Below are positions 2,415 to 27,852 of a stretch of DNA of 39,892 nt, one piece after another. The notes beneath the pieces were generated by a model. The model was not told the origin of the DNA and did no database searches. It was given only the letters and a program-made list of their open reading frames with translations. The position numbers were made by a program, and so were the translations under genes. Origin of the DNA: a virus. Each line of letters starts with the position of its first letter. The stretch's first letter is position 1. The stretch lies in the UHGV virus genome UHGV-0038300. The stretch is one strand, 5' to 3'.

Positions 2415-4955
2415 TCATTTTTTTACATTGCCATTTTCAATGGCGAAAATTCTCTCTTCCATATTATCAATTCTCTCCCAGCATTGCTGAATTGATTTAA
2501 CAATAGGTGGGATGAATTCATCGTAACCAAGTGAGTAAACATCATCCCCACCATTTTTCAAGTGATGCTGTAGCCCACCGAACTCAACACCTAATTTTTC
2601 ACACAGTTTCAATACGTCCTGTGCAATAAACCAGTGATGGTATCGTTGACGTTTTTTACTGCCGTCAGGAGTTTTCTGCACTACTTCAAGATATTTTTCT
2701 TCGACATTCTCAATAGCTGATACAGTAATTCCATCAACATCTCGCTCTACTTTTTTTGGTACAATTCTTGTTTTTTCAATAACATCAACATAATCATCAC
2801 GCATATCCCAGCGACCATCGACAGGACGAAGCCCAAGGATAAATTCAATCCCCAGCAAGGTATCTCGGATATCTGTTTTATCACGCGCATCAGATCTGTT
2901 TTGCACAGTTCCATATACATATGTCGTTGTGGAAGAATTGCCAAGCTGCACCTGGTTACTTCCAGACACCCTTGCATCATTGCCAACAGTTGTTGTGTTG
3001 GTAAGTGATGATGTGCTTTCCCCTGATTGAGTTAATCTACCTGAATTATGTCCAATAGCCGTGTTTAATGCGCCGGTTGTATTTGTGACAAGAGAGCCAG
3101 ACCCAATTGCAACGTTACTGCTTCCCGATGTTGTTCCTTTTAATGCCTGCTGTCCAACCGCAACATTATTATCACCCGTTGCTGCTATAAGTGCCATGTG
3201 ACCAATAGAAACGGTAAATGAACCTAGCGTTTGAGTTTCACCGCATGCCCCATAACCAATTACAACAACATTATCTGTAATTGTTGACTCGGTTGCCGCT
3301 CCAGCACCAATAACAACGCTTTCATTCCCGGCAAGATTCTTGCGCATTGCGAACATTCCAATGCCAACATTATCATGCCCAGTCCCTGTACCTGCTGCCT
3401 CCGCAGCACCAAGACAGTTTCCCGCTCTGTAGCCAACCATGGTGTTATTTGAACCAATAGAGAAGTCTCCGGAAAAAGAGCCTACGTATACACTATTAGA
3501 CTGAGAGTAATCTCCAGGATTTCCATTCGCCCGATATCCTACTGCAACTGTATAAATAGTATCTGGAGCCTCAGCCATGGCCTCAAAGCCAACTCCAACG
3601 TTATATCTACCGCCCTTAACTTTTTCTCCTGCACCAAGTCCGAAGAATGAGTTATAGCTCCCGGTTGTTAGCCACTCGCCAGCAACAGAACCTACAGCAG
3701 TGTTTCCTGTTCCAGTACATCGATACAAAGTCAGGAAGCCAACTCCGGTATTATTATTTCCTGAAATATTACTCATCAATGATTTTGACCCAATGGCAGT
3801 ATTGTTAACACCATCGGTCAGATCCTGTAACGCTCGCGGGCCAAATGCTGTATTATCGTAACCCTTTGGCGCTGTTGTTGGATCTGGTAACTCAGGGGTT
3901 AGTTTTTCACCACCACCACCATTGGCACAAAGATTGTAAGATCGAATAAATTCAGCCACTGGCCCAAGTTTTAAATAACCATTGGCAATATTAATTCTGA
4001 CACTTACATTAACTGAGCTACCAGGAGCTTCTATTGTCCTGTCATCAACCCAGGTAAAACTCTGTGGTATCCCGTCATAAGTTAATGTCACATCTCCTTT
4101 ATCATTATAATTATAGAACAATGTATAACGCTCATTTATAGATTCAGAACCTGATGATCCTCCTCTCCTCCACCACTCTGCATTATCAAAAATAAGTAAT
4201 CCCGGACCATAATATTTAGCTTTCTGCCCCAAAATCATAGGGCTTGATAATCTCCATACCCCCTCAGGAACATATATATTGCTACTTATTCTTTCAGCAT
4301 TATTAAAAGCAGTATCACATAGCTCGTCACCACCTTCTTTAGCTCCAAAGTCCAGAACACTGACAGTATCCCGCATCTTATCCTGGAACGTTCGATATAC
4401 TGCTCCAGAACCATACTGAATAAACCAACCAAAACCACCAACAACCCCGGCGATTGCAGCATCGACATAATTACGCATTGAGCGATTATTTACAGCGTCC
4501 TGCTCAAGTGATGGATCTGCAAGGTTAGAAATTCTGTTTTGCTTTGCATCGTAATATTTTGCAAGCAAAGATGGTTTCATCAATGCACGTCTGAACCATC
4601 CAAAACATTGCTGGATCAGCATCGTCAGATAGTCAAAGGCATCTTCATGCACCTCGGGGAAAAATTTTCCCTGATTACGAAGATCAGTCTCCTGCACCAC
4701 ATCAAGCACACGATCTATCGTAATTCGCCATCCAGCAGCAAGCGGCGACGGAAGAACAACAGAACCGCCACTATAAGTGCCCGCCCCAGTTACCGTATAA
4801 CCGGTATCCAGAACCAATTCTGTTACGTTCCCGTTCAGGTCAGACACCTGAACAACCAGGTCGGATTTTTTGAAAATACGGAAGGTGTACGGGAATGATG
4901 TCGTAATGCCGTTACCGGTGTATTCGTTGTGGTCAACTTCGGTTGAGACCGTCAT
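2415..4955 (-). CDS. Tail fibre with glycine-rich fibre repeats and a C-terminal peptidase S74 intramolecular chaperone domain
   Basis: N-terminal TGNGITTSFPYTF fibre-anchor-like motif, long G/N/S-rich repeats, and the C-terminal autoproteolysis motif ...NRSDARDKTDI... followed by a chaperone-like domain. Confidence 0.85.
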   Translation of the reverse strand: MTVSTEVDHNEYTGNGITTSFPYTFRIFKKSDLVVQVSDLNGNVTELVLDTGYTVTGAGTYSGGSVVLPSPLAAGWRITIDRVLDVVQETDLRNQGKFFPEVHEDAFDYLTMLIQQCFGWFRRALMKPSLLAKYYDAKQNRISNLADPSLEQDAVNNRSMRNYVDAAIAGVVGGFGWFIQYGSGAVYRTFQDKMRDTVSVLDFGAKEGGDELCDTAFNNAERISSNIYVPEGVWRLSSPMILGQKAKYYGPGLLIFDNAEWWRRGGSSGSESINERYTLFYNYNDKGDVTLTYDGIPQSFTWVDDRTIEAPGSSVNVSVRINIANGYLKLGPVAEFIRSYNLCANGGGGEKLTPELPDPTTAPKGYDNTAFGPRALQDLTDGVNNTAIGSKSLMSNISGNNNTGVGFLTLYRCTGTGNTAVGSVAGEWLTTGSYNSFFGLGAGEKVKGGRYNVGVGFEAMAEAPDTIYTVAVGYRANGNPGDYSQSNSVYVGSFSGDFSIGSNNTMVGYRAGNCLGAAEAAGTGTGHDNVGIGMFAMRKNLAGNESVVIGAGAATESTITDNVVVIGYGACGETQTLGSFTVSIGHMALIAATGDNNVAVGQQALKGTTSGSSNVAIGSGSLVTNTTGALNTAIGHNSGRLTQSGESTSSLTNTTTVGNDARVSGSNQVQLGNSSTTTYVYGTVQNRSDARDKTDIRDTLLGIEFILGLRPVDGRWDMRDDYVDVIEKTRIVPKKVERDVDGITVSAIENVEEKYLEVVQKTPDGSKKRQRYHHWFIAQDVLKLCEKLGVEFGGLQHHLKNGGDDVYSLGYDEFIPPIVKSIQQCWERIDNMEERIFAIENGNVKK

Positions 4956-5058: not shown

Positions 5059-5075
5059 ATTACCTTTCGGGTAAT
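5059..5075. promoter_or_regulatory. 17-bp palindromic operator-like site ATTACC-TTTCG-GGTAAT
   Basis: Perfect 6-5-6 inverted repeat belonging to the dispersed site family; upstream of the LexA box and the tail-fibre gene. Confidence 0.6.
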
Positions 5076-6178: not shown

Positions 6179-6195
6179 ATTACCTTAAAGGTAAT
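6179..6195. promoter_or_regulatory. 17-bp palindromic operator-like site ATTACC-TTAAA-GGTAAT
   Basis: Perfect inverted repeat about 20 bp upstream of the 5431-6159 gene start (minus strand). Confidence 0.6.
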
Positions 6196-6288: not shown

Positions 6289-6554
6289 TTTACATCGCAC
6301 TCCTCTTGTGCCATAGTAATCGGGCACTGGCAAAATCCAGTGCCGGGATTGGTCTCCCGGATTACTACAGAGGCACATATGCCGCATAAGCGGTTTTTTT
6401 ATGTGTAAAGCGCACCTATTCTATGGTGGGCTGTGTGGGGGCACCGAAAGGTGCGCCGGGTTCCTTTGTAGCCGGTAAGACCAACTCTGCACAGTTCACC
6501 ACCATCTGATTGGTCTCAGCGGTGGTGATTAACCTAACTACAAAGGTGATCGCC

Positions 6555-20472: not shown

Positions 20473-20910
20473 TTAACCAGTTACTTTTGAGCGGATCGGG
20501 TACGGCGTATTGGCATCAACATCAAGATTGATACCCGCAGTGAATTTGCCAGCCGTTAGTGGGCCAGTTGCGACGGAGTAGTTAACACGCAGATATCGCT
20601 GAACACCGGCAGGCACCTTTGCAGAAACAACTCGTTTACCTGCTGTCAGGGTAGCCTTTGCCAGTGCGCCACTATCATAAATAGTGGACCATGAGCTGTT
20701 ATTCTCACTCGTCTGCAACTGGATGTTTACAGTTGCCTCACCACTTGCCGTGGCGGCTTCGTTAACCAGCGCCCAAAACTCAAGCGGGTAACCCACGCCG
20801 ATATCGCGACGATTTCCATCAATTGGACCTAGATCGATTACGTCAGTAGAAGCCGCGGTATCAGTTACCGCCTGTGCTTCGGAGAACATCAACAGTTTGT
20901 CGGTGATCAT
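20473..20910 (-). CDS. Possible capsid decoration / minor capsid protein
   Basis: 145-aa ORF immediately downstream of the major capsid gene. Confidence 0.4.
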   Translation of the reverse strand: MITDKLLMFSEAQAVTDTAASTDVIDLGPIDGNRRDIGVGYPLEFWALVNEAATASGEATVNIQLQTSENNSSWSTIYDSGALAKATLTAGKRVVSAKVPAGVQRYLRVNYSVATGPLTAGKFTAGINLDVDANTPYPIRSKVTG

Positions 20911-20961
20911 CTTCTTTCTCCATTAGTGGGTCTGTTACGACCCACTGGTTAATAACAGGCG

Positions 20962-21954
20962 TTACACCACACGGGCTTCTGTTTCCAGAAGCGCATCAGT
21001 TTCACGGATTGGTACACCACGGAATGAAGTCCACCACTCGCCTTCTGTCTCTTTTACGCTGATCGCCAGAGATGTTTTCTCCAGAGATTGCAGATCAAGA
21101 GCCTGGCCTACAGTGCGGTTCATGTAGAACACCGGGCGACCCATTCCACGGTTTGGAATGCGATGCAGTGCTTTAACCATCAACTTCGCAATATTTGCGG
21201 CAGAGGAAGGTTCTGAAAGATTGCTGACATCGATGTTTGCAATGCGAACAACATAACGCCAGTCACGCAGAGCAAGTCCGTTGTCCCATTTGTAATGGGT
21301 GCGATAGCCTTCGTACTTGCCGCCATTAGCATCTTCCAGTGTCACCTGGCCTTTATCTTCCATCTGGATGCCAGCCTTCTGCCCTTTCGGGAAGATGCCA
21401 TGCACGGTGTTTTCGCCCCACACCACTAACCAGATTGAGGTGTTATCTGTACCCGTGCCACCAGCATCAATGATGTTCTGAGCATTACCCGCAGACAGGC
21501 TGGAATAGCGGGAGGACAGTCCCATAAACTGCTGAGGGTTAACGCTGGAATCACCATAAAACAGCGTCTGCGCCATCTGCTGATTCATCGCTTCAATAAA
21601 TGCGCGGTCTTCAGACAGGCGGAATTCAGCGGTATTGCCGTTCAGATCAGCCAGTGACTTATCGACTTCAGCATAGGTTTCCAGCATGCCAACGGAATCG
21701 GTTACCTGCACTGTGGTTGATTTGCTTGGCTGTACGCCATAGTTCAGCAAACGCCAGGTAGCTGAAGGTAAACCAGAACGAATGGTGGTTCGGTGTCCGG
21801 TAGGAAGGTTCCCTTCGACAAAAGGCATATCCTGAAGGATCGGGTTAGTTTGACCGAGAAGCTCGATAATCTTATCGACTTTCCCGTTTGGATCGACGCG
21901 CTTACCCCAGTCAGCCAGCGTTAGCGCAGTTAAGCCTTTAACAGCCATTGTCAT
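20962..21954 (-). CDS. Major capsid protein
   Basis: 330-aa ORF following the scaffold gene; size, position and composition typical of HK97-fold major capsid proteins of podoviruses. Confidence 0.75.
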   Translation of the reverse strand: MTMAVKGLTALTLADWGKRVDPNGKVDKIIELLGQTNPILQDMPFVEGNLPTGHRTTIRSGLPSATWRLLNYGVQPSKSTTVQVTDSVGMLETYAEVDKSLADLNGNTAEFRLSEDRAFIEAMNQQMAQTLFYGDSSVNPQQFMGLSSRYSSLSAGNAQNIIDAGGTGTDNTSIWLVVWGENTVHGIFPKGQKAGIQMEDKGQVTLEDANGGKYEGYRTHYKWDNGLALRDWRYVVRIANIDVSNLSEPSSAANIAKLMVKALHRIPNRGMGRPVFYMNRTVGQALDLQSLEKTSLAISVKETEGEWWTSFRGVPIRETDALLETEARVV

Positions 21955-21962
21955 TTCCTCTC

Positions 21963-22664
21963 TTATTTGCCATAGAGCACTTCGGCCGCACTACGCTGGC
22001 CTTCATTACCACCGGTGACCATGCCATCTTCAGACATCGCCTTTCCGATTTTCACGAACATTTTGACCAGATCAGGGTGATTACCCAGCCCGGTGGTGTT
22101 CAGATATTCTTTGAGTTCAGGTGTCCCGAACTGGTCAAGCGCACGCTGTGCGGCGCTAAGGTTAGAAATCAACTTGTCGCCACCGATTTCTTTGTCAGCT
22201 TTTACATCCGCAGCCCACTGCTCGGTTGTTTTCTGCCAGGCTTCTGCCTGGCGCTGCTGAACACCTGCCAGAATCTTCGGATAAGCATCAACCAGCTTTT
22301 GCGCTTGCTCGTTGGTCAGGTTAAGTTCTCGCGCCACCGGCTCGAATTCCTTCAACGCTTCTGTATCCAGCTCTACGCCTTCGGCAGCCTGAAACTCGTA
22401 CTTCTCAGGCGCACCCTCTGGTTTATCGCCGTCCTTTTTTTCATCCTGCTTATCGTTTTCAGGCTTTTTGTCATCAGCAGGTTTATCGCCATCAGCAACA
22501 GGTTGTGGCTTATCACCTTCCTGTTGTGATGGATCACCAACTGGAGCAGGGTTATCACCTGCAGGCGCTGACGGTTCTGACGCAGCCGGAGCTGCTCCAC
22601 CATCGACTGGTTGCTCATTGCAAAGACGGCGATACAGCAAACGCTCAAATAAATTCATGATCAC
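21963..22664 (-). CDS. Scaffolding protein
   Basis: Acidic, Pro/Ala/Asp/Lys-rich low-complexity N-terminal half and helical C-terminal half, between the portal and capsid genes. Confidence 0.65.
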   Translation of the reverse strand: MIMNLFERLLYRRLCNEQPVDGGAAPAASEPSAPAGDNPAPVGDPSQQEGDKPQPVADGDKPADDKKPENDKQDEKKDGDKPEGAPEKYEFQAAEGVELDTEALKEFEPVARELNLTNEQAQKLVDAYPKILAGVQQRQAEAWQKTTEQWAADVKADKEIGGDKLISNLSAAQRALDQFGTPELKEYLNTTGLGNHPDLVKMFVKIGKAMSEDGMVTGGNEGQRSAAEVLYGK

Positions 22665-22957
22665 TCCTGTTCACTGGCCTCTTTGGCCATCTTCAAATAC
22701 TGTTCAGGGCAATGCGCCATAACGCGCTGAAACAGTTCCAGCGCCAGATTGCGTTGCCCCTCATTAAATGCCATTGCCATAGCGTCCATCGGTGAGATAG
22801 CGGAAAACACACGGCCTTTCTCCAGCACAGACCAGACAACGCGACGCCCCTGTTCACTGCTCATGACAAAGCGAATGTCATCAATTTCACGCTGTGCCAT
22901 GTCACGTTGCGTACGGGCGTTTTCTTCTTTCAGTTGATCGTCTTCGTAATCTGTCAT
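22661..22957 (-). CDS. Small hypothetical head protein
   Basis: 98-aa ORF overlapping the portal stop and scaffold start. Confidence 0.45.
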   Translation of the reverse strand: MTDYEDDQLKEENARTQRDMAQREIDDIRFVMSSEQGRRVVWSVLEKGRVFSAISPMDAMAMAFNEGQRNLALELFQRVMAHCPEQYLKMAKEASEQE

Positions 22958-24633
22958 TGTGATTGCCCACCCTGACCACTAACTGCATTCGCCATAGCTG
23001 ACAACACACTCGGATCCGAAGTTTTAGCTTCGCTTAGCGTCTTGGCCCCCTGTGCCGCCGCCATCCCCATCGCCATCATTTGTTGCTGCTGTTGTTGCTG
23101 TGCCCGTTGCTGGCGAGCCTGCTCAACCTGTTCCTGCGGAACAATGACGGTTGGAGACACTCCGGACATATCAGCGAATGCATCGATCGCCTGATCAACG
23201 TTGAGTTTGTCGAGAGCTTCTGGTTTCGCTTGCGCAAGTTGACCAATGAAGTTGACCGTAGACGCCAGACTGGACAAGCCGATAGACTTCTGCGCCTGAG
23301 CCATGACGGAAATGTATTCGACCTTCAGGGGCATACCTTCCATCACGTCTGGCGGTGGCGGCAGCATGTTTTTACGCACCATCATCGAGAAAGAGCGATC
23401 AATGAGAGGATTAAGACATTCGTCGTTCAGGCGCTCCAGAACCGGCCCCAACATCAGAAGTTTTTCTTCTTTCATTTCGATCACCGCTTCCACAGGCATC
23501 GAGCGGGTATTGATGTTCTGCAACATCATGAACAGATCGACAAAGTAGGCGCTGTTAATGATTTGACGAGTGTCCTGAATGTCTGCCACCAAATCTGCTG
23601 TACTGGGGTTAACCAGATAAGCAGGCCTGAAACCATCCTGACCAGTAATCTGATCGATATACGTGATGTCGCCAGGAAGAAGGGAGGCACGCTGATTCTT
23701 GAGGGAAGTCGGAGCAACCATCGGCGGATTGGTGGCTTTATCAATCAACTGCGACTTGCGCTTCTGGAGAAGCTGCAATGCCTTAACAGGTCCAAGCGCC
23801 AGCATACCCGGGCATGATGATCCATAAACATCTTCGCCGTTAACTTCCCAGCGCGGAGCCATAATTGGAAACTCATCGAATCCTGACTCACGCAACAACT
23901 TGTCGTTATCGCCACCAACCTCGTAATAAACCGATTTGAATGGCTTGTTCTTGCTATCCAGCTTCGATGTATCGCGGTCAATGTTCGGGTAAACCGAATG
24001 CATCACTTCAATCCACTTCTCGTAGGTGCCGCTTTCCCACATGCTTTTTACGGATTCGCTGACGTTATTTAGCCCGAACTCCTGAACAAGCTGACGAACA
24101 GTCATAGAGAACTTACGAAAACATGTGTCCACACTGCCACGAGGTGAGTTAGCCAGGTAGTAACTACCTATCGGGAATGGCATTGTGCGAATTATGTCCT
24201 CGTCATCCTCCAGCACCGCCATTGCACCAGTGCTGTATGTGCCGAGGCTTCCGTATAACTGCGGAAGAGACTGGTAGAGATTCGACTTATTGAACATATC
24301 GTTCATGCGGTTCTGAACTGCCTCAAGCCACAACTTAACAGGGCCATAATCCATCATTTCAGGATCTGGCGTAGCCAGGCGAAACCACGGACGCACGGGG
24401 CTTGTGATGCCTGACATCATGCCGCTGGCGAGAGTGCGCGCCGCCATAGTCCCGGTCGAATCAATAATGCGTGTATTGCGCCGATCGTTACGGTTGGCCT
24501 CAGAAGTCAGAAAGCGGGAACCACGCGGGTTGATGTAATCACTCAACTCGCGCCAGTGCGGCTCGAACGACTGACGCTCGCTTTCAAGTTGTGCGAACTG
24601 TTTGTTCAATCGCTCTTTAGTTGTTTCCGCCAT
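22954..24633 (-). CDS. Portal protein
   Basis: 559-aa ORF upstream of scaffold and capsid with a Gln-rich C-terminal tail; size and position as for podovirus portal proteins. Confidence 0.75.
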   Translation of the reverse strand: MAETTKERLNKQFAQLESERQSFEPHWRELSDYINPRGSRFLTSEANRNDRRNTRIIDSTGTMAARTLASGMMSGITSPVRPWFRLATPDPEMMDYGPVKLWLEAVQNRMNDMFNKSNLYQSLPQLYGSLGTYSTGAMAVLEDDEDIIRTMPFPIGSYYLANSPRGSVDTCFRKFSMTVRQLVQEFGLNNVSESVKSMWESGTYEKWIEVMHSVYPNIDRDTSKLDSKNKPFKSVYYEVGGDNDKLLRESGFDEFPIMAPRWEVNGEDVYGSSCPGMLALGPVKALQLLQKRKSQLIDKATNPPMVAPTSLKNQRASLLPGDITYIDQITGQDGFRPAYLVNPSTADLVADIQDTRQIINSAYFVDLFMMLQNINTRSMPVEAVIEMKEEKLLMLGPVLERLNDECLNPLIDRSFSMMVRKNMLPPPPDVMEGMPLKVEYISVMAQAQKSIGLSSLASTVNFIGQLAQAKPEALDKLNVDQAIDAFADMSGVSPTVIVPQEQVEQARQQRAQQQQQQQMMAMGMAAAQGAKTLSEAKTSDPSVLSAMANAVSGQGGQSQ

Positions 24634-24647
24634 TTCAATGACTCCGG

Positions 24648-24854
24648 TTACTGACCAAGCAGCGTTTTACCGCTGGTATTAGCGGTTGATGTGTCGCCCT
24701 GAGAACCGGTAAGCAGCGTAGAACTACGACCAGCAGCAGCGCGACGGCGACGTGTTTCTTCGTCGCGGGCATCAACAACGGCGGCATCCTGCTCCTGTGG
24801 TGCTGCCTGAACTTCTGGTGTTGCAGGCACTGATGGTGAGCTACCCATGCACAT
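24648..24854 (-). CDS. Small hypothetical protein upstream of the portal gene
   Basis: 68-aa ORF with a GGAG RBS 8 nt upstream; low-complexity sequence, so weak. Confidence 0.3.
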   Translation of the reverse strand: MCMGSSPSVPATPEVQAAPQEQDAAVVDARDEETRRRRAAAGRSSTLLTGSQGDTSTANTSGKTLLGQ

Positions 24855-24943
24855 ATCAATGACTCCGTACGCAATTAAATTATTACCAATTTAACCACAT
24901 ATGATTTATTTATCGTAGACAGTTGACATTTAACGCACGAATT

Positions 24944-24960
24944 ATTACCTTTCAGGTAAG
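24944..24960. promoter_or_regulatory. 17-bp operator-like site ATTACC-TTTCA-GGTAAG
   Basis: Member of the dispersed site family; 16 bp downstream of a TTGACA hexamer (24923-24928) in the non-coding region upstream of the tRNA. Confidence 0.5.
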
Positions 24961-25281
24961 CAAAGAGTTCATTCCGGTTATTAACCTGACTGGCTTGTCG
25001 TTAAATTGAACAGGTGGGGTGAGCTTTTATTTTGAGCAGTACGGTGTATGGCACATGCGCCGATAGCGGTCTGGATACGTTTAAGGGGCACCCTCCCTTG
25101 CTCGGGCAAACGAACCAGGTAGCCGGAATGTGCAAGTCGAGCGGTTTTATTCCGCGCACGGGGATTCACCATCCCGGCGATTCGGTGTGACACCTCGGAA
25201 GAGACGAGGGTACAACGATGAGAGCATTTATGGAGCCGCGACAAAGTGTGGCGCCTTAACAGGCTAAGTGCTCTCAGCGTT

Positions 25282-25358
25282 GTGGCATTAGCTCAGTCGG
25301 ACAGAGCAACCGCCTTCTAAGCGGTTGGTCGCAGGTTCGAATCCTGCATGCCACGCCA
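25282..25358 (+). tRNA. tRNA-Arg (anticodon UCU, reads AGA), 77 nt with encoded CCA
   Basis: Hand-folded cloverleaf: acceptor gtggcat/atgccac, D-stem gctc/gagc, anticodon stem accgc/gcggt with loop cTTCTAa (U33, A37), T-arm gcagg-TTCGAAT-cctgc, discriminator G, CCA. Confidence 0.85.
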
Positions 25359-25587
25359 GAATCACGCCTAAGGACCGTGATGCCAGAAGTTCCAGGTGCT
25401 TGGCGGTGATGGTTTCCCTTGAGGGACTATCACCGCCCTTTTTACAGCAGGACGCCATTGCGATGACTTCATGCTGTAAACCCGTACAGCCACGGAAGGC
25501 AAAACTCATTGCTTCCAGTTCGCCCGGTTCGCCGGGCATTTTTTTAAGGTGTGAATCATGAAATACGAATTCGATGGATTTTGATGT

Positions 25588-25601
25588 CGTGACATGTCAC
25601 A
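25588..25601. repeat. Palindrome cGTGACATGTCACa, copy 2 of 3
   Basis: Same 12-bp core as at 8706-8719 and 27853-27866; directly next to a terminator hairpin. Confidence 0.7.
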
Positions 25602-25604
25602 AAC

Positions 25605-25631
25605 AGCCAGCCGATGAGCTGGCTTTGTTTT
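25605..25631. terminator. Bidirectional rho-independent terminator between tRNA-Arg and the large terminase gene
   Basis: Stem agccagc (25605-25611) / gctggct (25618-25624) followed by ttgtttt; T-rich on the opposite strand as well. Confidence 0.6.
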
Positions 25632-25674
25632 ATCCTCATCAGAGGATATCAACGACATTATCCCCTCAAGCGGA

Positions 25675-27150
25675 TTAAGCATAGGGATCGTAATCTGTGA
25701 TGGCCTTGCCTTGCTGGTTCTGCTGCCCGGGAATTCGCAGACGCTTCGACACAGGGAACGCAAACGTCAGCAGTAGCGCATCGCCTTTACCCGGCGAACG
25801 CCCAAGCCGCTCCTTGATATCCTCCTTCGGTTCGATAACGATTTTACCGTCCACGCGAACTTTGTACTCTGCCGCCGACAGGTCGTCTGCAGTTTCCTGG
25901 TCATCCAGCATTCCGCCCAGCCTCAGCCATGTCTTACATGAGTTGAACATCTCCCCACGCTTGTTAAGCATCTGCGGGTCAGTGGACGCACCGCCGAACG
26001 GAACAAGTTGCCATGTACGCCCCCAGCCATCACCGATTGACTTCAAACCGGTTCCGTAACCGAAGTCGATGAACACCGCGTCAGCCTGATACTGGTCTTC
26101 AAAGTCAGCGATACGCTTCGCCATAATCAGATCGTCGGTAGTCTTGTTGCCAGTCCACAGCACCTTACTGTGTAGCCCCTGCCGCAGGTATATCACCGCG
26201 TCATCAACGCCTGAATATGCCGGGTCAACACCGATTATCACCGGAGCATGCGCCACCTGCGCAGCGGTTACCACCCGTTTCATTGCCTCATCAGTAAGAC
26301 CGGTAGGGATAAACTGCAATTCAGATGCATCAGGGAATATGCCGCGCACACGGATTTTAACGAAGTCGCTGTCTTCCCCGTAGTCATCAACCCATTTCTG
26401 CAACTGCTGTTTGTTAGTGCCTTCCACCGTCCGGCTGTCAATCTGCGCACACTTCCAGCGGTGTTTATATTTGCGGAAACATTCGCGGAAACGCCCGGTG
26501 TTACGTGTAGGGTTTCCGAACGCCACCCAGATAATCTCAGTGTCTTCGTCCGTAAGCGCACCCTCAGAAACTTCCCATACCAGATCCGCAATGTTCGACG
26601 CTTCATCGAATACCACGATGATGCGTTTGCGCTCGTTGTGTAGTCCGGCGAATGCCTCAGTGTTGTGCTCAGACCAGGGGATTGCGTCAGCTCGCCACCG
26701 CTTGTCGTGCCCAGGATCATTGCTGTACATCGCGGTAGCGGTACAGGTAAACCAGTCTTTCGTGATAGCAAGGTTCGACCACTTGATAATTTCCGGCCAG
26801 GTCTTCGTTCGTAGCTGGTTGTCGGTGTTGGCGGTCACCACGACCTTACAATCCTCGCAAGTGGACATGCCCCAGTTGATCAGCATTGAGATGAATGCGG
26901 ATTTACCAATACCGTGACCAGAAGCGCGTGCCAGCATAAGCGGCTGATAGCGCGTCTCTGGATTCTGCAGGTGATCACGTATCTCTCGGAACGCATCAGC
27001 CTGCCACTGACGTGGGCCGGTAGCATGTGCCAGTTCAGTCCCCTCTTCCCCCCACGGGAACGCATAGAGGGCATAGCCAAGCGGATCGTGAGTGAACCCT
27101 GCAATATCCTCGATCAACTGCTCTTCAGGAGATAACGCTGTATCTGTCAC
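25675..27150 (-). CDS. Terminase large subunit
   Basis: 491 aa with a Walker-A-like GHGIGKS ATPase motif in the N-terminal part, immediately downstream of the small-terminase gene; the nuclease domain was not individually identified. Confidence 0.85.
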   Translation of the reverse strand: MTDTALSPEEQLIEDIAGFTHDPLGYALYAFPWGEEGTELAHATGPRQWQADAFREIRDHLQNPETRYQPLMLARASGHGIGKSAFISMLINWGMSTCEDCKVVVTANTDNQLRTKTWPEIIKWSNLAITKDWFTCTATAMYSNDPGHDKRWRADAIPWSEHNTEAFAGLHNERKRIIVVFDEASNIADLVWEVSEGALTDEDTEIIWVAFGNPTRNTGRFRECFRKYKHRWKCAQIDSRTVEGTNKQQLQKWVDDYGEDSDFVKIRVRGIFPDASELQFIPTGLTDEAMKRVVTAAQVAHAPVIIGVDPAYSGVDDAVIYLRQGLHSKVLWTGNKTTDDLIMAKRIADFEDQYQADAVFIDFGYGTGLKSIGDGWGRTWQLVPFGGASTDPQMLNKRGEMFNSCKTWLRLGGMLDDQETADDLSAAEYKVRVDGKIVIEPKEDIKERLGRSPGKGDALLLTFAFPVSKRLRIPGQQNQQGKAITDYDPYA

Positions 27151-27746
27151 TGATTACCATCCTGACGTTCTTTGAGTCGCTTCCTGGCTGCTGCTATGCG
27201 ATCAGCAATTGTCACATTCACATTAACATCCAGACGTTCTTTGAACGCGTTGACATCAACATGCTTACCAATCAGCTCAAGGTTCTTCACCTTGTCAGGC
27301 CATTTAATTTTTTTGAGGATTGTCTCTATCGAATCCTCGTTCATGTTCATGATGGTCGATGACAGATCAAAGCCACTAAGCGTAGTGCGCCAGATTTTCG
27401 GCCACTCACGGATTGGTTTAAGGCTCCCATCGTCGTTGAGGATGTCGATCACGTCCATCTGGTCGATCTCCACCAGGCGCATGAGAACGTAATCAGCACT
27501 GACGCGCATTCGTTTGTTGCGCTCCTCCATCAACTCGGCAATCCGTTTTTGAATGCGTTCATCGCGCATCATGACACTGGCTTTAACTGCCGCTGTATTT
27601 GGGGAGAATCCTGCGTTAATCGCTGCCTGAGTCTGGTTTTCAGGCGTTTTGATGTATGACTGGCAATAAGCCTCCTGCATTGCTGTTAGTGGCTTAAATT
27701 GCGTTGATTTGCGTTTATAGGTTTTAGGTTCAGCAGGCATCATAAC
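27147..27746 (-). CDS. Terminase small subunit
   Basis: HTH-containing N-terminus (...LTAMQEAYCQSYIKTPENQTQAAINAGFS...) typical of small terminases; the listed ORF extends to a TTG at 27821, but an ATG near 27746 with an upstream RBS is more likely. Confidence 0.7.
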   Translation of the reverse strand, partial: VMMPAEPKTYKRKSTQFKPLTAMQEAYCQSYIKTPENQTQAAINAGFSPNTAAVKASVMMRDERIQKRIAELMEERNKRMRVSADYVLMRLVEIDQMDVIDILNDDGSLKPIREWPKIWRTTLSGFDLSSTIMNMNEDSIETILKKIKWPDKVKNLELIGKHVDVNAFKERLDVNVNVTIADRIAAARKRLKERQDGNQ

Positions 27747-27786
27747 CACCGTGGTAATAGTTACCGTTGTGGTAATAGTACCATGC

Positions 27787-27812
27787 AAAATAAAGCCGCC
27801 ATAGTTGGCGGC
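27787..27812 (-). terminator. Terminator-like hairpin in the leader of the late operon, upstream of the small terminase
   Basis: On the minus strand: gccgcc-aactat-ggcggc followed by tttatttt. Confidence 0.45.
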
Positions 27813-27852
27813 AGTATTCAAAACCCATCAAATTCATCATGCATAATCTACT

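Follow-up and report, generated by a model that had tools for sequence, protein, structure and literature searches.

The UHGV virus genome UHGV-0038300 carries, on the plus strand and opposite to the surrounding late genes, a tRNA-Arg gene preceded by some 400 bp of DNA without an evident product, which raises the question of what this DNA specifies. The stretch analyzed here comprises 39,892 nucleotides of that genome and is called the window, and the segment under study, 24855-25631, covers the entire intergenic region between the terminase gene terL and a homologue of gp3. A preliminary description made from the sequence alone had left the DNA upstream of the tRNA as a possible co-transcribed leader or noncoding RNA, or as a remnant of the event by which the tRNA was acquired. 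Comparison with homologues indicates that it encodes a structured plus-strand RNA (the core, whose DNA is referred to below as the element), which is a widespread family of its own that the earlier reading could not see.

The fold of the core (Table 1) was assessed by pair counts in 52 homologous sequences, non-redundant at 90% identity, for helices P1, P2', P2, P4, and P5, the pseudoknot, and one provisional closing helix. Standard pairs occupy 93.5% of the pair cells, compared with 31 to 49% when the partners are slid by 1 to 3 columns. Both sides of a pair have changed in 126 cells, compared with 40.8 ± 4.6 in shuffled alignments, none of the 500 shuffles reaching 126; these slid and shuffled controls are not probabilities. 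The covariation score of the same alignment is 0.266 versus 0.130. Compensatory changes are found in every helix and in the pseudoknot. In helix P1, G-C is replaced by A-U in 20 sequences, and C-G or U-A variants also occur, while in P2 C-G is replaced by U-A in 15 sequences. P2' is supported by two loci (L142 and L173) in which AGCGG has become AGCAG together with a change of CCGG to CUGG. The stem of P4 occurs as GGGA/UCCC, ACGC/GCGU, and UUGA/UCAA, and that of P5 as CCUCG/CGAGG, CCUGG/CCAGG, and GCCGG/CCGGC. The pseudoknot CACC/GGUG has become AACC/GGUU in three separate lineages, namely, mEp460-type phages, a Kosakonia prophage, and a Buttiauxella prophage. The strand follows from the asymmetry of the noncanonical pairs: G·U outnumbers A·C by 171 to 22, with 95.1% pairing for the plus-strand RNA versus 85.5% for the minus strand, showing that the RNA is the plus strand.

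Table 1. Coordinates in the window of the core RNA, of the unit that contains it, and of the flanking genes.
Feature	Position	Strand	Evidence or remark
Core structured RNA, about 170 nt	25041-25209	+	covariance model, pair counts, G·U:A·C ratio
P1	25042-25050 / 25054-25062	+	
P2'	25067-25069 / 25123-25125	+	
P2	25070-25074 / 25115-25119	+	encloses variable branch
Invariant single strand GGAAUGUGCAAG	25125-25136	+	
P3, variable	25141-25144 / 25152-25155	+	
P4	25161-25164 / 25172-25175	+	loop UUCACCA
Pseudoknot, P4 loop with 3' strand	25167-25170 (CACC) / 25184-25187 (GGUG)	+	partner 14 nt downstream
P5	25193-25197 / 25205-25209	+	loop GAAGAGA
Sigma-70-type promoter, predicted	24923-24951	+	-35 TTGACA 24923-24928, 17-nt spacer, -10-like TACCTT 24946-24951
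Repressor operator, palindrome TTACCTTTCAGGTAA	24945-24959	n/a	overlaps the -10 and the inferred start site
Leader, about 80 nt	24960-25040	+	alignment with relatives; inverted repeat I6
P6, long hairpin	25212-25283	+	arms 25212-25230 / 25265-25283, 19 nt each, one mismatch, 34-nt apical insert
tRNA-Arg, anticodon UCU, CCA encoded	25282-25358	+	ARAGORN; Rfam RF00005
Strong intrinsic terminator, predicted	25402-25445	+	stem 25402-25437, 15 bp, about -24 kcal/mol, then CTTTTT
Two more terminator-like hairpins	25522-25632	+	stems 25522-25537 and 25605-25624, each with a T tract
terS/terL block	27821-25675	-	terL itself 27150-25675
gp3 homologue, 68 aa	24854-24648	-	
Portal gene	24633-22954	-	

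The unpaired parts of the core are more conserved than some of its hairpins. Near-invariant single-stranded stretches comprise GGAAUGUGCAAG, UGGCG, the UUCACCA loop, and the GAAGAGA loop, and some 60 positions in junctions and loops do not vary between phage types; two hairpins are variable, the P2 branch (20 to 44 nt) and P3 (13 to 24 nt). The sequences were gathered by exact-motif scans, which inflates the apparent invariance of the motifs used; even so read, invariant stretches beside variable hairpins are the usual signature of what would be a folded functional RNA. A candidate tertiary pairing of GGAAUGUGCAAG with the apical UCCUU of P2 or with the GCACAU loop of helix P1 involves partners that never vary, so that covariation is uninformative about it. 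A GYC/GAC helix closing P3 and P4 was left out of the assigned helices, as C·A predominates at its middle pair.

A covariance model built from the 52 homologues retrieves a single match in the window, at 25037-25221 (145.6 bits, E = 4e-42), and no second copy of the core elsewhere in the window. The preliminary description had called the segment structured and had proposed a scan with covariance models; this purpose-built model and the 93.5% pairing bear it out. The Rfam 15 models, in contrast, give nothing in 24960-25281, either at the gathering threshold or at E values up to 10, among riboswitches, ribozymes, small RNAs (sRNAs), 6S, signal recognition particle RNA, RNase P, transfer-messenger RNA, and others. 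Full-text searches of limited literature coverage found no paper with the invariant 19-mer or 15-mer, written as DNA or as RNA, and keyword searches of similarly limited coverage found no description of the element. With no Rfam model and no paper containing the invariant motif, the family appears to be undescribed. In kind it is a phage-borne structured noncoding RNA linked to early operons and tRNAs, and not a categorically new type. A role as a sponge for CsrA was considered and rejected, since the core has just two conserved GGA motifs and these are without the usual A-N-GGA context.

No reading frame is conserved over the element on either strand, which upholds the earlier remark that the DNA upstream of the tRNA has no convincing open reading frame (ORF). 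Many loci have minus-strand ORFs across the element, but, depending on the lineage, the invariant 19-mer falls in each of the three frames (LAHSGY, LHIPAT, and CTFRLP), with differing starts and stops, and the spacings between three conserved anchors, in 49 distinct length combinations, are distributed modulo 3 as 22/15/12 and 20/16/13. An 87-aa minus-strand ORF (24981-25244) overlies the element in the window and is likely of the annotation-error type. The gene product gp37 of mEp460 is likewise an ORF drawn over the RNA element and probably an annotation error (the places listed as likely errors are L001 3689-3757 and L004 2443-2811).

How widely is the core distributed? A sensitive BLAST search with 24955-25285 retrieved approximately 80% identical, unannotated DNA in unrelated phages: lambdoids (mEp460, cdtI, twelve Stx2c phages, and Stx2a phages), P1, P7, and other P1-like phage-plasmids, phages of Klebsiella, Salmonella, and Enterobacter, and one Stenotrophomonas phage. 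The covariance model scores 129 to 167 bits in phiV10, P1, mEp460, the Stx2 phages, and the Klebsiella, Salmonella, and Enterobacter phages, and 158 bits in the Stenotrophomonas phage. The segment is not the unconserved DNA that the preliminary description had allowed for: it is kept in 88 phage records, in which the matching region bears nothing or a spurious hypothetical ORF, and in 1843 of 5426 complete E. coli genomes, at 1923 chromosomal places and 554 on plasmids. In the E. coli matches that were sampled, nothing is annotated under the element beyond the overlapping end of a tRNA-Arg or a spurious ORF. At least 120 IMG/VR contigs were found in each of two motif scans. In a set with one genome per species (185,579 species), the strict pattern occurs in just 25 contigs, showing that the element is sporadic and mobile and not a housekeeping RNA. 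All 25 are from Enterobacterales except two from metagenome-assembled genomes, one assigned to Stellaceae (L185) and the other, a 1.7-kb contig, to Bacillota (L203); both are probably mis-binned or contaminating phage contigs.

The association with tRNAs is frequent and always on the same strand, and it is not obligatory. Among 132 loci, a tRNA-Arg(tct) lies just downstream of the element in 29 and a P1-type tRNA(cat) just upstream in 17, on the strand of the element in 46 of 46 cases, and the remaining 86 loci have no tRNA within 800 nt. Salmonella phage PAT1, one of the relatives lacking the tRNA with which a comparison had been proposed, keeps the element. Since most loci and PAT1 have the element without a tRNA, it is not a leftover of tRNA acquisition, and the suggestion of such a remnant is given up in view of the covarying RNA and the unrelated phage types that carry it. 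In epsilon15, only an 81-nt remnant of the element is found (38.8 bits).

Among 53 non-redundant representatives, three settings recur, as follows. In about 22, a cI-type repressor gene on the same strand immediately precedes the element; in lambdoids, the cI terminator comes first, followed by operators and promoter, the element, and the leftward early genes. These loci combine many repressor alleles with at least three sets of first early genes. About 20 representatives are at the terL/gp3 position of Uetakeviruses, as in the window. Four, from P1-like phages (P1/P7 type), have it between trnI and ban in the ban operon, which is under C1 control; in P1 the operon includes a dicF-like region and two further tRNAs as well, and the element is 2.3 kb into it. 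Stenotrophomonas phage BUCT708 has the lambdoid-type layout of a cI-type repressor followed by the element, and Klebsiella phage SopranoGao carries the element as a unit of its own, preceded by a terminator and a promoter in that order. The first downstream genes are mutually unrelated and no protein gene is consistently linked; no N-type antiterminator is found among those examined. Uetakeviruses, c15-type lambdoids, and BUCT708 have a strong intrinsic terminator between the module and the following gene on that strand, and c24-type lambdoids have none between the element and the downstream genes.

Two local features accompany these settings. In BUCT708-type leaders (L208 2378-2391, 2428-2440, 2818-2835, and 2882-2912; also L044 and L079), GGAAAGAC(C) is present as five direct repeats placed around the core and the terminator downstream of it; several of these form small P5-like hairpins, and protein-binding sites or boxB-like hairpins are both possibilities. 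In P1, a 14-codon ORF at 71251-71297 (L005 2729-2775; MPIISDIQHAWVEC) has a good Shine-Dalgarno sequence and ends in a TAATG that overlaps the ban start, which suggests translational coupling to ban downstream of the element.

In the window, the core is part of a transcription unit whose promoter and terminators, as elsewhere in this analysis, are consensus predictions. The arrangement TTGACA-17-TACCYT is kept upstream of the element, with the same spacing, in essentially all Uetakevirus representatives examined, and would place the transcription start near 24958; a generic promoter scan preferred an overlapping, weaker pair, TAGACA-18-AATTAT. The TTGACA hexamer and the operator-like site pointed out in the preliminary description are both substantiated by these comparisons. 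The operator sequence, TTACC-N5-GGTAA, occurs 15 times in the window with at most one mismatch, versus 0.75 expected and reached in none of 100 shuffles, at 5060, 6180, 6273, 7313, 24945, 27743, 27761, 30383, 30445, 32391, 32728, 32776, 33488, 33550, and 39669. A repressor site is marked at the equivalent place in the epsilon15 record, and the sequence can be taken as the genuine, scattered operator of the phage repressor. The scatter resembles the C1 network of P1, with one pair of operators just upstream of terS. Elsewhere on the plus strand of the window (6324-6506), isrK (74.7 bits) is directly followed by a C4 antisense RNA (78.6 bits), a P1/P7-type immI antirepressor-control module in a Uetakevirus, with operators at 6180, 6273, and 7313.

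Downstream, the first terminator is kept at the equivalent position in other Uetakeviruses, and with the two hairpins beyond it the tRNA is followed by three terminator-like structures on the plus strand, in keeping with the earlier statement that it has its own terminator. Promoter, operator, leader, core, P6, tRNA, and terminator make up a small noncoding plus-strand unit, 24923-25445. The upstream segment shares this promoter-terminator unit with the tRNA and has a covarying plus-strand fold, so that, of the options first proposed for it, that of a co-transcribed noncoding RNA is the one that stands.

The boundaries of the core are marked by long hairpins or by tRNAs. On its 3' side is P6, identified from inverted repeat I1 (arms 89% complementary) and from the minimum-free-energy fold, whose 3' end shares two bases with the start of the tRNA. 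It was judged in homologues by folding each sequence separately, as a one-base bulge in one subtype breaks the register of an ungapped alignment. The CAAC/GUUG base of P6 closes in 65 of 78 distinct homologous variants, giving a stem of 16 to 20 bp around an apical insert of approximately 10 to 170 nt, and the arms covary (GAUGAGAGC/GCUCUCAGC, GGUAAGAGC/GCUCUUUCC, CAAAAGAGC/GCUCUUUUG, and GAGAGCGCA/UGCGCUC). A boxA in the 3' arm (UGCUCUU...) was considered and rejected: the positions vary (UGCUCUC, UGCGCUC) with compensating changes in the 5' arm, which places the constraint on the duplex. With about two turns of nearly perfect double-stranded RNA flanking the core, P6 is a probable, putative processing stem of the RNase III type. 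T-arm-like hairpins (5-bp stem, TTCRAWY loop) are found in 5 of 53 P6 inserts (loci L007, L009, L015, L106, and L158), and the insert of L106 yields a degenerate tRNA with ARAGORN at a relaxed threshold; the stem may serve as a bracket around a slot for tRNA-like modules.

On the 5' side, the leader at about 24996-25036 is the degenerate remnant of another long hairpin, P0, of which other Uetakeviruses have an intact copy. P0 follows the sequence pattern of P6 and was annotated 'RNaseIII' by the depositors of epsilon15. In the lineage of the window only, leader positions 24970-24980 (CAUUCCGGUUA) are complementary to the invariant positions 25120-25130 of the core (UAGCCGGAAUG); the two might pair as an alternative, or the match might be left over from the rearrangement of P0. 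The 5' end takes other forms in other phages: in several lambdoids and in SopranoGao a sigma-70 -10 element ends 7 to 8 nt before the core, and in P1 the core starts 15 nt after trnI. The core is apparently bracketed, then, by two-turn double-stranded stems or by tRNAs, or has a 5' end that the promoter would define, and the flanking hairpins and tRNAs suggest excision by RNase III and RNase P.

What would such an RNA do? We favor, tentatively and at somewhat less than an even chance, that the core is an immediate-early, excised, stable RNA that acts in trans on a conserved host factor. Upon loss of the repressor, at infection or induction, host RNA polymerase would make the unit transcript among the first phage RNAs. 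RNase III would cut the long flanking hairpins and RNase P the 5' end of the tRNA. The products would be the tRNA and a stable, compact core, whose 5' end would in some relatives be set by an upstream tRNA or directly by the promoter. The core would then act through its invariant junction and loop nucleotides, binding, sequestering, or redirecting some conserved macromolecule of the host that takes part in RNA metabolism, transcription, or phage defense, much as would other host-takeover RNAs excised from phage early operons, while the tRNA would be separate cargo that supplements AGA decoding.

This trans-acting RNA is preferred because of the stand-alone unit of SopranoGao, the internal position in the ban operon of P1, beside other host-directed RNAs, the processing stems, and the three terminators in the window, and we favor it as the only reading that fits all contexts. 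The tandem arrangement of the three terminators shields the unit from the convergent terL gene and is consistent with a highly expressed stand-alone RNA unit. All settings checked for a repressor (every one but that of SopranoGao) are by their layout early and repressor controlled, with the operator on the -10 in the window, a place after the cI terminator and promoter in lambdoids, and the C1-controlled ban operon in P1. When trnI and ban of P1 are targeted by CRISPR interference, plating on a laboratory host is not impaired (PMC10695390), as would be anticipated of an accessory function.

Several points weigh against a trans-acting core. The stable RNA species is putative, as are its ends and its partner, and no candidate host target for the core emerged. 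In c24-type lambdoids, with no terminator after the element, the core, if not excised, physically remains the leader of an mRNA. In lambdoids generally the element occupies the nutL/putL position, in some with a strong terminator ahead of the first early gene, and with this position and terminator a role in cis fits at least as well.

The main rival explanation, which we consider unlikely, is accordingly a protein-independent, processive antiterminator of the kind of HK022 put or Bacillus EAR, in which the nascent core binds its own RNA polymerase and carries it through terminators. It would suit the position directly after a cI-type repressor, at the start of the leftward early operon, in the 22 or so lambdoid-type representatives and in the Stenotrophomonas phage, and also the lack of an N-like protein from the first downstream genes and the strong terminator ahead of same-strand genes in c15-type lambdoids, BUCT708, and Uetakeviruses. 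The loci in which the -10 ends 7 to 8 nt before the core recall HK022, where putL begins at the start of the PL transcript (PMC9378689). However, the core has no homology to put, the best match of the model in the HK022 PL/PR region (nun-cI-cro) being 3.7 bits, and its pseudoknotted fold of about 165 nt differs from the two stems in about 70 nt of put. There is one copy per phage, against putL plus putR in HK022. In P1 the element is 2.3 kb into its operon, and in c24-type lambdoids it has no terminator after it. In the window, moreover, processive antitermination would be counterproductive, as the polymerase would proceed antisense into terL and terS from a unit that ends in three terminators.

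A second explanation, improbable in our estimate, is that the core and its hairpins are a processing or stability leader in cis, which just protects or processes the downstream tRNA or mRNA, for instance, by blocking Rho or RNase E. The invariable strand of the neighboring tRNA, the abutment of P6 on the tRNA 5' end, and the long hairpins typical of RNase III sites on either side of the core would all be accounted for. Against this, 86 of the 132 loci have no tRNA within 800 nt, the downstream cargo varies by context, and some 60 invariant nucleotides plus a pseudoknot exceed the needs of a generic protective structure.

A new self-cleaving ribozyme or a riboswitch-like sensor is very improbable. 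Several small ribozyme classes are phage borne and located next to tRNAs, as is the element, and the compact pseudoknotted fold with many invariant unpaired nucleotides would suit either function, but no ribozyme or riboswitch of Rfam 15 matches, the downstream genes have no common function, and a riboswitch would have no adjoining expression platform, the terminators being at least 150 nt away, beyond P6 and the tRNA, or absent. For the Uetakevirus setting alone, an antisense regulator is a shade less probable still. The plus-strand RNA, embedded antisense between terL and gp3, would pair with this part of the late mRNA, which probably holds the complement, as no minus-strand terminator was detected between the two genes, and RNase III would cut the duplex. 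The same sequence and structure are nevertheless kept in lambdoids, P1, and SopranoGao, where there is no antisense partner, so that such pairing cannot explain the conservation and is at best a side effect here. Finally, a small protein gene or a DNA-level site (origin, att, or pac) is effectively excluded, despite the ORFs annotated over the element in mEp460 (gp37) and present on the minus strand in the window, by the translation of the 19-mer in all three frames, the spread of the anchor spacings over all residues modulo 3, and the compensatory changes and excess of G·U over A·C, which indicate a single-stranded plus-strand RNA.

The tRNA gene itself is as first described. ARAGORN calls one tRNA in the window, tRNA-Arg(tct), with the anticodon at position 35, and the Rfam tRNA model gives 73.3 bits versus a gathering score of 29; the UCU anticodon is in a 7-nt loop, and the gene 3' end, ...CCACGCCA, includes the CCA. 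Over 71 nt, the gene shares 84.5% identity with a tRNA-Arg gene present in almost every E. coli genome, of which it is a diverged relative; the K-12-like map position of the latter (approximately 564.7 kb) suggests argU. The gene is antisense to its neighbors, as had been noted, with terL, the gp3 homologue, and portal all on the minus strand. Its placement between the terminase and portal genes holds on the terL side; on the other side the immediate neighbor is the gp3 homologue, with portal next. This location had been considered atypical, but it is the standard arrangement in phiV10-like Uetakeviruses and is conserved across the genus, and phiV10-type members (phiv142-3, HEMP4, and phiV10) are 98% identical to the window over the region.

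The proposed role of the tRNA as a decoder of AGA is plausible from codon counts. AGA makes up 8.1 per 1000 codons and 13% of the Arg codons in the ORFs of the window, a usage several-fold higher than that of the E. coli host. The head-gene block that surrounds the tRNA (20473-27821), however, contains zero AGA codons, and these are concentrated in a tailspike-like gene (2415-4955, an 846-aa ORF with 13 AGA), the tail genes, and the early genes. Any benefit would therefore fall to the tail, tailspike, and early genes; the supplementation is unrelated to the neighbors of the tRNA and leaves the RNA element unexplained. Codon usage is strongly mosaic across the genome, as the contrast between 20473-27821 and 2415-4955 illustrates.

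The slot between the tRNA terminator and terL is variable. In phiV10 and epsilon15 it holds a plus-strand accessory gene (Sf6 gp66/DUF2829-like; L002 3963-4334 and L003 3723-4088), which is lacking in the window (25440-25674), and other Uetakeviruses hold different genes there, making it a hot spot for cargo. Two annotations at the tRNA in public records are likely errors: phiV10p04 (83 aa; minus strand, 25288-25539 in the window) is an ORF antisense to the tRNA and terminator, and in MN187550 the tRNA is drawn on the wrong strand with short coordinates.

A broader proposition comes close to an even chance in our view, namely, that the core is the first example of a new class of phage RNAs that act without a dedicated phage protein, either as a large structured decoy disabling a factor of host defense or RNA metabolism at the outset of infection or as an RNA-only modifier of RNA polymerase structurally unrelated to put. 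If so, both phage P1 and a third of E. coli genomes harbor an RNA class that has escaped notice. Despite the heavy study of P1, Stx-converting phages, and phiV10-type phages, none of the 88 carrier records annotates the RNA, and annotation pipelines place spurious ORFs over it instead. The first-transcribed position on derepression would point to an RNA-based form of host takeover, counter-defense, or transcription control. The core would be a candidate for a new Rfam family and for structural study, with the tRNA and the core as separable modules of a mobile noncoding cassette.

Comparison with known systems places the core near several of them. In position, it is closest to put of HK022, a site of about 70 nt with two stem-loops (PMC9378689). 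Like put, the element stands at the very start of a repressor-controlled lambdoid early transcript, with no N-type gene among the first downstream genes examined and, in some contexts, with terminators downstream; it is promoter proximal in lambdoids and Uetakeviruses. It differs from put in having no sequence or structure similarity (3.7 bits at best in HK022), in its larger fold of about 165 nt with five helices and a pseudoknot, in its single copy per phage, and in its occurrence inside the ban operon of P1, where it is operon internal, and within a deliberately terminated unit in the window. EAR of Bacillales, a pseudoknotted, operon-internal RNA of about 120 nt that promotes read-through of distal terminators, is a precedent for a complex antiterminator acting in cis at an internal position, as in P1. 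It is found in different hosts and gives no Rfam match to the element.

GOLLD and ROOL RNAs, which have multiple pseudoknots, resemble the core in their phage or prophage origin, in having no assigned function and no known protein partner, and in a frequent proximity to tRNAs. The linker of GOLLD sometimes embeds tRNAs (PMC12286853). In parallel, the element has a same-strand tRNA in 46 of 132 loci and T-arm-like hairpins in 5 of 53 P6 inserts. In contrast, the core matches no Rfam model, including these, at E values up to 10, is three to five times smaller (about 170 nt versus 500 to 800 nt or more), is found almost wholly in Enterobacterales and their phages, and is tied to repressor-controlled early promoters. 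The stable structured RNAs called species 1 and 2 of phage T4, also of unknown function, are co-transcribed and co-processed with phage tRNAs. Compared by description only, they differ in belonging to the tRNA cluster of a virulent phage, whereas the element is mostly without tRNAs and in temperate phages.

DicF is a base-pairing sRNA of 53 nt that RNase III and RNase E release from the dicB operon transcript. It resembles the core as a noncoding RNA of an early, repressor-controlled operon, with flanking stems of the RNase III type and a probably host-directed action, and the ban operon of P1 carries both a dicF-like region and the element. The core differs in being large and rigidly folded, with no obvious unstructured seed and no match to an Rfam sRNA. 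In its behavior the core is thus closest to excised RNAs of the DicF type and to GOLLD and ROOL, in its position closest to put, and it is a member of none of these groups.

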